The translations under genes and the position numbers were made by a program. The notes beneath the pieces were generated by a model. It was not told the DNA's origin, did no database searches, and was given only the letters and a program-made list of their open reading frames with translations. Below are positions 31,721 to 33,847 of a DNA stretch of 64,000 bases, in pieces (position 1 is the stretch's first letter; the number at the start of each line of letters is the position of its first letter). The DNA comes from an uncultured Bacteroidales bacterium (GTDB lineage: Bacteria; Bacteroidota; Bacteroidia; Bacteroidales; UBA3663): the NCBI GenBank assembly GCA_905235375.1, contig CAJOLH010000003.1, positions 85,268-149,267 of the forward strand, written 5' to 3'.

Positions 31721-32476
31721 TTATCTGAATTCCCTCAACTTCTCGACATATCGCCAGAAGTAGATGAAGGGGTTGAATGCTATGCCGTGTTTGTGAAAGG
31801 CGCGGATATGGTCTTTCATGATTCGATAATGACTCTGCAAGCCTTTGGTTGTGGCTCCACCGATACGCATTGTCACCCAATCCTCCTCGACGTAGAGTGT
31901 CTTGATACGATTGAGATAAATGAGTCGCAGGAGGAACTCGAAGTCGGCTGCCACCTTATAATCGAGATCATAATAGCCGAACTTCTCCAAACATTCGCGT
32001 CGCAGATAGAAAGTAGGATGTGCCGGAATATAGCCCATCCGCATACGCTCAGGCGTAAACTTCTTGCTGCTATAGTAGCGCACAATCCGATTCGGATCCT
32101 TCGGCGAAACATAATGGACGTCGGCATAGACGGCATCCACGTCGGGATGCTGGTCGAAAGTGCGTGCTATGGTGGACAGGATATCGTTGCGCGTGAAGAA
32201 ATCGTCACTATTGAGGATGCCGATGACATCGCCCGTGGCACGAAGGCATCCACGATTGAACCCATCGTAGATTCCTTCGTCGGGACAACTCTCCAACTTC
32301 AACCGATTACCCAATCGGGAAGCGTATTCCTCGATGAGCTGCAATGTGCCATCGGTACTTCCCCCATCCTGTATGACCAGCTCGTAGTCATCGTAGTCTT
32401 GAGCCAACACGCCCTCAATGGTGCTACGCAATGTGCCAGCACTATTGTAGGTGGATGTCACGATAGATATTTTCAT
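31721..32476 (-). CDS. Family 2 glycosyltransferase
   Basis: MKISIVTSTYNSAGTLRSTIEGVLAQDYDDYELVIQDGGSTDGT is the classic GT2 N-terminus. Confidence 0.85.
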   Translation of the reverse strand: MKISIVTSTYNSAGTLRSTIEGVLAQDYDDYELVIQDGGSTDGTLQLIEEYASRLGNRLKLESCPDEGIYDGFNRGCLRATGDVIGILNSDDFFTRNDILSTIARTFDQHPDVDAVYADVHYVSPKDPNRIVRYYSSKKFTPERMRMGYIPAHPTFYLRRECLEKFGYYDLDYKVAADFEFLLRLIYLNRIKTLYVEEDWVTMRIGGATTKGLQSHYRIMKDHIRAFHKHGIAFNPFIYFWRYVEKLREFR

Positions 32477-32499
32477 CGATTGTCATGGATTTTCCGGTG

Positions 32500-32507
32500 C
32501 AAAGTTA
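32500..32507 (-). promoter_or_regulatory. Bacteroidota -7 box (TAACTTTG on the minus strand) for the GT2 gene
   Basis: CAAAGTTA on the plus strand, 24 nt upstream of the ATG at 32476. Confidence 0.5.
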
Positions 32508-32544
32508 CATATAATACTTGAGAATACAAAATAATTTGCAGGAT

Positions 32545-32579
32545 AATTAACAATTAACGATTAACAATTAACAATTAAA
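32545..32579. repeat. Five tandem 7-bp units (AATTAAC)
   Basis: Direct reading: aattaac aattaac gattaac aattaac aattaaa. Confidence 0.8.
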
Positions 32580-32601
32580 GAATGAAGAATAGCGCCAATA
32601 C

Positions 32602-32747
32602 AAAAAAACCGTCACCTGCCATTTGACTGACAGGTGACACGGGTTTGCTTTTCTTTTATCCAGTTTTTCTGGTATTAGATTTAAGGTCCCAAAGAAACTA
32701 CTTTTGTTGCGTTATTTAAGGTATTGTGTTATGGTTGTTTATTTAAG
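32602..32747 (-). ncRNA. Candidate small RNA (about 145 nt) bounded by a -7 box and an intrinsic terminator
   Basis: A minus-strand TATCTTTG box lies at 32754-32761. A terminator GUCACCUG-N12-CAGGUGAC followed by GGUUUUUUUG lies at 32602-32638. No ORF is present. ACCUUAAAU occurs three times in the transcript. Confidence 0.45.
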
Positions 32748-32884
32748 GTGGTGCAAAGATACATCATTTTTCAAACGAATCCAAATTTTCGTGAAACTTT
32801 TTTGCCGCGTAATCGGTTGCGCAAATACATTTTATTCTAAAAATATGTTATAGAACATGCTTTTTATGAAATAAGGAGAGGGAA

Positions 32885-33847
32885 TCAAGTGAAATTCCGA
32901 ACGAACGATAGAATTTTGTCAGCGTCAGCTGGATGGAACCAATGTATCTCCTGATCACGCTGGAACCAGGTCATCTGTTTTTTGCTATAGACACGGGAAT
33001 TATGACAAATACGCTCCTTGGCACGATCGAGCGTATAGACACCCGTGAAGTATAGCAGCAGCTCCTTCAGACCGACGGTATTCAGAGATGACGGCAAGAG
33101 ATTGGGGATAGGTTGCTTTTGCGTGGGTCCCGGATTACGAACGACCGAGGATAACTGTTCATCGACCGAAGACCGATAACGCTGATAGACGCGCCCTGCC
33201 TCCTCCACGATTCCTTGCTCGAACATCTGCGCTACCCTCAATTCGATGCGACGATAGAGCTCTTCCCTATCACGATGCAAGCCTATCTTGACCACACGGA
33301 AAGGGCGTTGCTTGCTCCGCCCCGTATGAAAAGTGCTGAAAGGCTGGCCGGTAGTCAGACACATCTCAAGACCATGAATGACGCGCTGTGGATTCTGCCG
33401 ATCGACCGAAGCATAATATACGGGGTCGAGCTGCTGCAGTTGTGCAAGAAGCGGTTGGAGCCCTTCAGCTTCATACTGCCTGCGCAGACGCTCGCGTATG
33501 GCAGGATCGGCCTGAGGCATATCGTCGATGCCTCTCGTCACTGCATCGATATACATCATCGAGCCACCGGAAAGAAGATAATCTTTTGGGCATATAGCAA
33601 AGAGCTGCATGACATCCGTCTCATACTGTGCAGCGCTGTAGGCATCCTCAAGGCCATGAGTTCCCACAAAGAAATGTTGCACCCGCGCCTGCTCCTGGGC
33701 CGTTGGTGCTGCTGTGCATATTGGTATCTCGCGATAGATCTGCCGCGAGTCACAATTGACAATCGGTACGCCCAACATCTCAGCCATCTGCAAGCTGAGT
33801 GCCGTTTTCCCGACAGCGGTGGGACCTAAAAGGACGAAAACAGTCAT
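32885..33847 (-). CDS. miaA: tRNA dimethylallyltransferase
   Basis: The P-loop N-terminus VLLGPTAVGKTALS, then NCDSRQIYREIPICTAAPT and the overall layout are typical of MiaA. Confidence 0.9.
   Translation of the reverse strand: MTVFVLLGPTAVGKTALSLQMAEMLGVPIVNCDSRQIYREIPICTAAPTAQEQARVQHFFVGTHGLEDAYSAAQYETDVMQLFAICPKDYLLSGGSMMYIDAVTRGIDDMPQADPAIRERLRRQYEAEGLQPLLAQLQQLDPVYYASVDRQNPQRVIHGLEMCLTTGQPFSTFHTGRSKQRPFRVVKIGLHRDREELYRRIELRVAQMFEQGIVEEAGRVYQRYRSSVDEQLSSVVRNPGPTQKQPIPNLLPSSLNTVGLKELLLYFTGVYTLDRAKERICHNSRVYSKKQMTWFQRDQEIHWFHPADADKILSFVRNFT

Follow-up and report, generated by a model that had tools for sequence, protein, structure and literature searches.

Does the DNA between miaA and a GT2 glycosyltransferase gene in an uncultured Bacteroidales bacterium encode a small RNA (sRNA), and if it does, with what kind of partner would that RNA interact? 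The locus lies on the minus strand of a window of 64,000 nucleotides (nt), the whole stretch of DNA that was analysed (UBA3663; GenBank assembly GCA_905235375.1, contig CAJOLH010000003.1, positions 85,268-149,267 of the forward strand); coordinates given below are those of the window, and the genome from which it comes is designated G000. A preliminary description of the window had proposed a candidate sRNA containing three copies of a short motif, and had suggested that the repeated single-stranded motifs serve either as seeds or as a protein sponge. The locus very probably contains a real, independently transcribed sRNA gene, which, as far as can be judged from sequence, is a member of a previously undescribed multicopy sRNA family of an established kind, the base-pairing sRNAs. 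The suggestion that the motifs are unstructured seeds holds up, but a protein is the less likely partner and an RNA the likelier one, because a 25-nt stretch that includes the third motif is antisense to the seed of the sRNA FopS, a feature which the preliminary description overlooked.

FopS has so far been the central known RNA regulator of polysaccharide utilisation in gut Bacteroides. According to the available part of the paper on FopS and RbpB (PMC11697453), the 5' end of FopS (positions 1-21, the extended seed R1') pairs near susC-type start codons and blocks translation, and RbpB, an RRM-1 protein, relieves FopS repression in Bacteroides thetaiotaomicron. The reading preferred here, to which a probability of about 0.6 is assigned, is that the new RNA would act in trans by base pairing, counteracting FopS and repressing a small metabolic regulon.

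A probable independently transcribed RNA gene

A stand-alone sRNA gene of the Bacteroidota is recognized by its own promoter and its own terminator, and both can be read at this locus. The perfect -7 box of the preliminary description, TATCTTTG, of the Bacteroidota TAnnTTTG type, is present at 32754-32761 (minus strand, as are all features below unless otherwise specified), and a -33-type element, TTTG within AAAATTTGG, precedes it at 32782-32785 with a spacer of 20 nt. The same -33/-7 arrangement is visible upstream of most family members. In the fopS genes of G000 the -7 box, which is TATCTTTG or a near variant of the TAnnTTTG type, stands equally far from the 5' end, and the fifth base beyond the box is the first of the RNA (TATCTTTGCATC|G). 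This spacing would place the +1 of the new RNA at the A at 32749, so that the first motif forms the extreme 5' end and the predicted sRNA, at 32602-32749, has a length of 148 nt from the +1 to the U-run, in good agreement with the ORF-free stretch of about 145 nt described previously (ORF, open reading frame). No conserved ORF was found in the family alignment of the RNA, in which the AUG position of the third module varies and the downstream frames extend over 1-20 codons.

The 3' end is an intrinsic terminator at 32602-32639, identified by a hairpin scan and in the predicted fold, in which a 12-pair stem (32639-32610) with a 6-nt loop is followed by GTTTTTTTGT, a run of seven U; the textbook terminator previously placed at 32602-32638 is therefore confirmed. 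The hairpin scan taken alone is not enriched, with 1 site as against 2.0 expected in the 2.5 kb scanned. Paired changes keep the hairpin in close relatives (GUCACC/GGUGAC to AUCACC/GGUGAU), and more distant members have unrelated terminator hairpins.

The motif ACCTTAAAT occurs three times on the minus strand, as had been reported; the corresponding plus-strand word ATTTAAGGT, at 32679, 32714 and 32741, has no other occurrence in the window, where 0.27 would be expected, and a count of 3 was reached by 0 of 100 shuffles. Module 1 is the 5'-terminal ACCUUAAAU at 32741-32749, delimited by motif search and alignment. Module 2, at 32716-32736, is the 21-mer AACCAUAACACAAUACCUUAA, which contains most of the second ACCUUAAAU (32714-32722). 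Module 3, at 32663-32687, is the 25-nt anti-FopS stretch ACCUUAAAUCUAAUACCAGAAAAAC, which includes the third ACCUUAAAU. The internal hairpin CCAG-AAAAA-CUGG, also described previously, is found both in the sequence and in the minimum-energy fold, but it is not kept in relatives (CAGG, CGAG, CUGA), and its bases belong to the anti-FopS stretch.

A multicopy family with a conserved 5' domain

Relatives were collected from a species-level genome collection by means of a 21-mer from the conserved part of the RNA, matched exactly at first and then with up to 3 mismatches. The exact 21-mer yielded 59 stretches, and 82 family copies were gathered from those loci, of which 57 non-redundant copies were retained. 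Retention required a -7 box at the right distance, so the presence of this box in the 57 members is not an independent count; L055, L082, L072 and one of the two tandem matches in L062 were excluded for lack of it. The stretches come nearly all from metagenome-assembled genomes (MAGs) of uncultured Bacteroidales or Prevotellaceae, with up to four copies per genome, and the two matches in Flavobacteriales and Pirellulales lack the promoter and are probably due to chance.

The preliminary description held that an absence of conservation in close relatives would speak against an sRNA, and the RNA proves to be kept well beyond them. Alignments with the closest loci span 169-176 nt and show 86-90% identity, and distant loci align only from the promoter to query position ~118, being unrelated downstream; identity over the promoter and 5' domain of these distant loci is 93-98%, where MiaA is only 65-69% identical, and the RNA is thus conserved beyond its flanking DNA. 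This conservation, together with the promoter and terminator, supports the earlier proposal of an independent sRNA that belongs to neither neighbouring gene. G000 itself has a second copy (G000:C53:11327-11424) with its own promoter and terminator.

All 57 members end in a hairpin and U-run, with predicted lengths of 115-203 nt (median 157), and the hairpin sequences differ. The first ~90 nt are conserved, unstructured and G-poor, the 3' part is variable, and (A/G)CCUUAA opens every aligned member. RNAalifold gave 0 conserved pairs in the aligned 5' ~100 nt; the conservation is therefore one of primary sequence in a single-stranded, G-poor region, and for the same reason the family model, R1, was built from sequence only. 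A DNA search matched 24 of 24 same-genus genomes, and R1 has matches in 29 of the 31 genus genomes, with 1-4 in each; completeness is 63% and 83% in the two genomes that R1 does not match. Across the order, R1 matches 3 of 151 genomes, namely G000, one congener and one member of another genus.

Rfam, searched at gathering thresholds over the whole window, gave 0 matches. A permissive search (E <=10, 32300-33000) returned a sub-threshold match to FopS on the other strand and two chance-level matches, and on the strand of the RNA no family beyond a chance-level L20_leader over the terminator (15.2 as against 58.7 bits). Identity with SrcF of Segatella copri is unlikely, since SrcF is described as Segatella-specific in the available part of a preprint, which gives no sequence.

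Two unusual copies were observed. In L062 (a Bacteroidales MAG) the 5' unit ACCUUAAAUAAACAACCA(A/U)AACACAA(C/U)ACCUUAAAU is tandemly doubled, giving four ACCUUAAAU before the anti-FopS module. L123 (G161:C45:857-925), which has the same sequence as L072, lies downstream of miaA (MiaA 53% identical) and has no recognisable -7 box; this copy may be released from the miaA 3' untranslated region (UTR) rather than transcribed on its own.

Complementarity to the FopS seed

The sub-threshold Rfam match is to RF04319, the FopS family, on the plus strand at 32661-32733 (E 0.54; 22.6 bits, where the gathering score is 56). The seed of B. thetaiotaomicron FopS, among whose targets is susC BT_3983, agrees with the consensus of this family. 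The alignment is confined to the 5' seed and includes no terminator hairpin, the hairpin positions being mismatched, and the minus-strand RNA is therefore an antisense of the FopS seed. The plus strand reads TTTCTTTT at the promoter position instead of TAnnTTTG, and since the gathering score is missed and the plus strand does not combine seed, hairpin and TAnnTTTG promoter, the locus is not assigned to FopS. The plus-strand match is likely to be a relic of an inverted fopS 5' part.

Of the fopS genes in G000 (55-70 bits), four exceed the gathering score and a fifth reaches 55.2 bits; all of them start with GTGTTTTTCATGGTAT(T/A)AGATTT(T)AAGGT. Module 3 is the complement of FopS nt 3-27 without the U of AUG. 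When the reverse complement of FopS nt 1-32 was compared with G000 by short-word BLAST, 23 matches were obtained, and the best one outside the fopS genes was the candidate RNA, with 18 nt of perfect match (and 7 more after a 1-nt gap) as against at most 14 elsewhere. The RNA thus has the extended complementarity to an sRNA seed by which sponges and anti-sRNAs are recognized.

The predicted duplex of module 3 with FopS nt 1-33 is near-continuous, at -31 to -35 kcal/mol. The 5'-terminal unit forms three helices with the same region at -18 to -19 kcal/mol (module 1 and CCAUAACAC with FopS nt 1-28 give a three-helix duplex of -18.3 kcal/mol), and the middle motif reaches -11 to -13 kcal/mol; co-folding of the whole molecule with FopS yields a gain of -23 to -27 kcal/mol. 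Every one of the 57 members pairs with the FopS 5' region more strongly than all 50 of its own shuffles do, with a median of -27.5 as against -14.1 kcal/mol. Most members of the candidate's subtype fall at -30 to -38 kcal/mol, and most of a second subtype, in which an inserted small hairpin separates ...UAC(C) from (AU)GAAAAACAC, at -20 to -29 kcal/mol.

The predicted pairing is specific to single nucleotides. The FopS seed has two alleles at nt 17 (U/A), GGUAUUAG and GGUAUAAG, and both occur, in differing proportions, in each of the six genomes checked (G000, G001, G006, G008, G018 and G019; loci L001-L005 and L097-L117). Members of the family that have CUUAUACC in place of CUAAUACC match the A17 allele. 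In the genomes whose copies read U opposite nt 17 (G006 and G018), 3 of 4 and 3 of 6 fopS genes are A17, and in the four genomes with A or G opposite nt 17 the fopS genes are mostly U17; these genomes are too few, and too closely related, to establish a co-variation. The most variable position in module 3 is that of the AUG (AG, UG, CG, GG, CUG, AUG), after which there is no consistent ORF, and module 3 therefore looks like a decoy of a start region and not like a coding start.

FopS and the family also occur together. All five of the other genus genomes checked have fopS, with 3-6 genes each, and the 3 order-level genomes with the family all have FopS, compared with 26 of 151 order-level genomes overall (24 of 148 genera); this support is weak because it covers only two genera. 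On the basis of the complementarity and its excess over chance, pairing with FopS is probably part of the function of the RNA.

Two further fopS-like fragments were noted in G000, at G000:C21:40460-40470 and G000:C66:16448-16494 (L007). One has a canonical promoter and a shortened seed (…TATCTTTGCATCGTGTTTTCATGGTAATG on the opposite strand), and the other is a divergent GUGUUUUCACUCUUAGAUUUAAGGUC copy that scores 22.3 bits.

Predicted mRNA targets

The search for complementary mRNA 5' regions that the preliminary description had recommended gave significant matches. The complement of the module-2 21-mer, TTAAGGTATTGTGTTATG, ends in ATG and has four matches in G000 at up to 2 mismatches, two of which are the two sRNA genes themselves. 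In the other two the ATG is the start codon of a protein gene identified by Pfam: a 496-aa acetyl-CoA hydrolase/transferase (1 mismatch in 18) and a 447-aa cofactor-independent phosphoglycerate mutase (2 mismatches in 18). The 18-nt box thus has 2 matches, at up to 2 mismatches, at the starts of ORFs of at least 100 aa, compared with a mean of 0.083 matches, and 0.017 at ORF starts, for 60 shuffled boxes in which the ATG was kept; none of the 60 gave two ORF-start matches. A third candidate is a 2-oxoacid:ferredoxin oxidoreductase, whose 5' UTR starts with AGAAAAUUUAAGGUUGUGUUAAU and has a second AAUUUAAGGUA beside the AUG.

These candidates were evaluated across the genus by determining the longest exact complement to the first 50 nt of the RNA within -70 to +10 of the start codon. 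For the CoA-transferase a complement of at least 9 nt is present in 21 of 27 genomes (4% of shuffles reach 9 nt), including a 16-nt perfect match spanning the start codon in G005, and for the oxidoreductase in 14 of 26 (3.5%). The miaA control has such a complement in 0 of 19 genomes (1.8%). The predicted mRNA targets are given even odds of being genuine.

It was also observed that the oxidoreductase leader of G000, of ~65 nt (G000:C52:23827-23895, minus strand), contains two GAAAAAUUUAAGGU repeats, and that the UUAAGGU close to its 5' end is found again in several leaders of the genus that are otherwise constructed differently.

Proposed mechanism

In the mechanism proposed here an independent transcript of ~148 nt would present three pairing modules, each centred on ACCUUAA, in its first ~90 nt. 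Module 3 would pair with the FopS 5' seed and, by covering FopS nt 3-27, would keep that seed occupied, so that FopS would be sequestered or co-degraded; the RNA would then act as a sponge or as a mutual antagonist, and FopS repression of susC-type transporter mRNAs would be relieved. Modules 2 and 1 mirror the UUAAGGUAUUGUGUUAUG box over the start codons of the CoA-transferase and the mutase and part of the oxidoreductase 5' UTR, and pairing at those starts would block the initiation of translation. The anatomy of the gene, its conservation, the complementarities and their excess over chance are observed; transcription, pairing in vivo and the direction of regulation, that is, which RNA regulates which, belong to the interpretation.

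If the mechanism is correct, the RNA would be the first candidate sRNA sponge in the Bacteroidota, and the start-region mirrors of fermentation genes suggest that glycan import is connected with central carbon flow in Bacteroidales of the gut and rumen that are abundant but uncultured.

A number of points weigh against this interpretation. The +1 at 32749 is placed by likeness to the fopS promoters. The invariance of module 2, whose 21-mer is identical in all members and holds 17 of the 21 invariant alignment columns, is partly an ascertainment effect, because the members were gathered with that 21-mer. Counts overstate the support they give, because the genomes of one genus are not independent; the shuffle controls for FopS pairing, 50 per member, were mononucleotide shuffles, and RNAduplex takes no account of accessibility. 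In module 3, which can be aligned in 46 of the 57 members, the non-consensus cells comprise 51 that are G-U compatible as against 63 mismatches; pair-keeping transitions occur in 16 of 21 possible columns, and pair-breaking ones account for 7 cells in 3 of 7 columns, a substitution pattern that appears to favour pairing only mildly. With respect to the mRNAs, the mutase box is kept in few genomes (at least 9 nt in 5 of 29; 1% of shuffles), and the 9-mer AUUUAAGGU is not enriched in G000 (28 occurrences as against ~29.5 expected from uniform composition). When nt 1-52 of the RNA were ranked by RNAduplex against 4038 crude start regions, the mutase came 7th and the CoA-transferase 17th; this energy ranking is noisy, its upper places being taken mostly by GC-rich spurious ORFs with long looped duplexes, and the statistics of contiguous matches were relied on instead for that reason. 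Finally, UAAGGUAUG beside start codons could be kept for translation itself and not for sRNA pairing.

Alternative explanations

The alternatives differ in which part of the evidence they set aside. An ordinary mRNA-targeting sRNA, whose match to FopS results from inverted descent from fopS and a shared vocabulary and has no regulatory meaning, is an unlikely explanation, although the mRNA complementarity is significant and conserved, the opposite strand resembles a degraded fopS 5' portion whose promoter is destroyed, and AUUUAAGGU, GUGUU and AUGG are common to FopS and the mRNA boxes. A neutral relic should decay, whereas module 3 is kept in both subtypes, despite the inserted hairpin, at loci where MiaA is 53-68% identical; moreover, a 25-nt duplex of ~-33 kcal/mol with the seed of an abundant-type sRNA would arise with or without selection. 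In favour of titration of an RNA-binding protein by the single-stranded ACCUUAAAU repeats, the three motifs lie within an unstructured region, and an RRM protein does bind single-stranded sRNA regions in B. thetaiotaomicron, according to the available part of PMC11697453. Such a protein sponge is nevertheless improbable: proteins with RRM_1 were found in none of the 31 genus genomes nor in G161, a search that covered RRM_1 and no other RNA-binding proteins, and conservation reaches far beyond the 9-mer, in long exact mirrors of known RNAs that a short protein motif would not need.

The remaining alternatives concern the existence and the strand of the gene. The preliminary description had itself named the possibility that the hairpin is the terminator of miaA read-through, in which case the RNA would be the miaA 3' UTR and no separate gene would exist; the RNA is on the same strand as miaA, 135 nt downstream of its stop, and the copy L123 lacks a recognisable -7 box. 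This is very improbable given the canonical -33/-7 promoter, whose spacing to the conserved 5' end is constant, the terminator that each of the 57 members possesses, and paralogues elsewhere with their own promoters and terminators, such as the C53 copy of G000. Furthermore, miaA and the RNA gene are convergent in L015 and L017, where they occupy opposite strands, and read-through from miaA cannot produce the RNA there. The least credible alternative is a functional plus strand, encoding a divergent FopS paralogue or a small protein. It would account for the weak Rfam match and for the plus-strand ORFs of 49 and 38 aa that overlap the region, but that match, at 22.6 bits compared with 56, has no terminator hairpin and a destroyed -7 box, the conserved promoters and terminators are all on the minus strand, and insertions and deletions in the 3' variable parts are incompatible with any ORF.

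RRM_1 proteins and the relief of FopS repression

Under the preferred reading, that the RNA antagonises FopS, its relation to RbpB can be considered from the distribution of the RbpB family. RRM_1 proteins were found in none of the 31 genus genomes, which are 63-93% complete, nor in G161, which is 96% complete; they were found in 112 of the 151 order-level genomes, and 9 of the 26 FopS-bearing genomes have no RRM_1 match. A substitution of the RNA for RbpB is an attractive idea but a purely correlative one. It is weakened because two RRM_1 proteins occur in G110, the one genome from another genus that carries a family copy, and because seven further FopS-bearing genomes have neither an RRM_1 protein nor the RNA family among the matches found; the G110 case also tells against the proposed mechanism as a whole. 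It is doubtful that the genus lost its RbpB-type RRM protein, that the RNA took over the countering of FopS, and that FopS and the RNA form a reciprocal switch. If such a switch existed, FopS would shut off susC-type glycan-import mRNAs, the RNA would shut off the CoA-transferase, mutase and oxidoreductase mRNAs, and their mutual neutralisation would couple sugar uptake to fermentative central metabolism; if the RNA is a sponge, its occurrence in a genus in which no RRM protein was found would suggest that RNA and protein antagonists of FopS are interchangeable.

Relation to known systems

RNA sponges and anti-sRNAs have reportedly been described in Proteobacteria, in the pairs SroC/GcvB, AgvB/GcvB, chb decoy/ChiX and 3'ETS-leuZ with RyhB and RybB. 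They are mostly processed from mRNAs or tRNA precursors and are Hfq-dependent, and the Bacteroidota are, to our knowledge, a phylum without Hfq. The new RNA resembles them in that its complementarity to an sRNA seed would titrate or destabilise the sRNA and de-repress its targets, but it differs in being a stand-alone multicopy gene that offers as many as three sites and apparently has an mRNA regulon besides. The RsaE/RoxS-type sRNAs of Firmicutes have several C-rich motifs, and the likeness to them lies in short, unpaired, pyrimidine-rich repeats predicted to mask the initiation regions of central-metabolism mRNAs. There is, however, no homology or Rfam match to RsaE/RoxS, the motif is ACCUUAA and not a C-run, and its target is UUAAGGU and not the Shine-Dalgarno sequence.

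As FopS is described in the available part of PMC11697453 (RF04319), the two RNAs share a multicopy organization, a TAnnTTTG promoter, an unstructured 5' pairing region followed by a terminator, and predicted action at translation initiation regions, and they share sequence in mirror image; the new RNA differs in being the antisense of the seed, about twice as long, built of three modules and confined to approximately one genus. GibS of B. thetaiotaomicron, as that part of the paper describes it (PMC11697453), is likewise an intergenic sRNA of the Bacteroidales, ~145 nt long and equipped with two pairing regions, but it carries a sense R1 seed shared with FopS and another promoter motif; it is set apart here by this description only. 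RbpB would achieve the same proposed outcome, the relief of FopS repression, as a protein instead of an RNA, and it is the only FopS antagonist described in the literature examined (PMC11697453, available part). The word sponge does not occur in the available text of that paper, nor do sponge and decoy in the available text of a 2026 review of gut-commensal sRNAs (PMC13750123), and among the listed literature on B. thetaiotaomicron sRNA sponges no title or abstract deals with a FopS antagonist.

Genomic neighbourhood

Pfam confirms the location given previously, downstream of miaA and upstream of the GT2 promoter. The upstream neighbour, miaA, is at 32885-33847 (IPPT, E 7e-65), and the downstream neighbour, the GT2 glycosyltransferase gene, is at 31721-32476 (E 2e-24), with a separate promoter whose -7 box, TAACTTTG, is read at 32500-32507. 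The RNA gene adjoins miaA at 19 loci of relatives, with MiaA 53-90% identical, whereas GT2 follows it at no more than the three closest loci. Heptamer repeats TTAATTG/TTAATCG (TTAATTGTTAATTGTTAATCGTTAATTGTTAATT) occupy 32544-32578 on the minus strand, in the interval that separates the sRNA terminator from the promoter of GT2. In the close relatives L009-L011, too, the terminator of the sRNA is succeeded by similar runs of AATTGTTAATTGTTAATT. The repeats may serve to bind a protein as an array, or may act on the GT2 promoter in the manner of an UP element.

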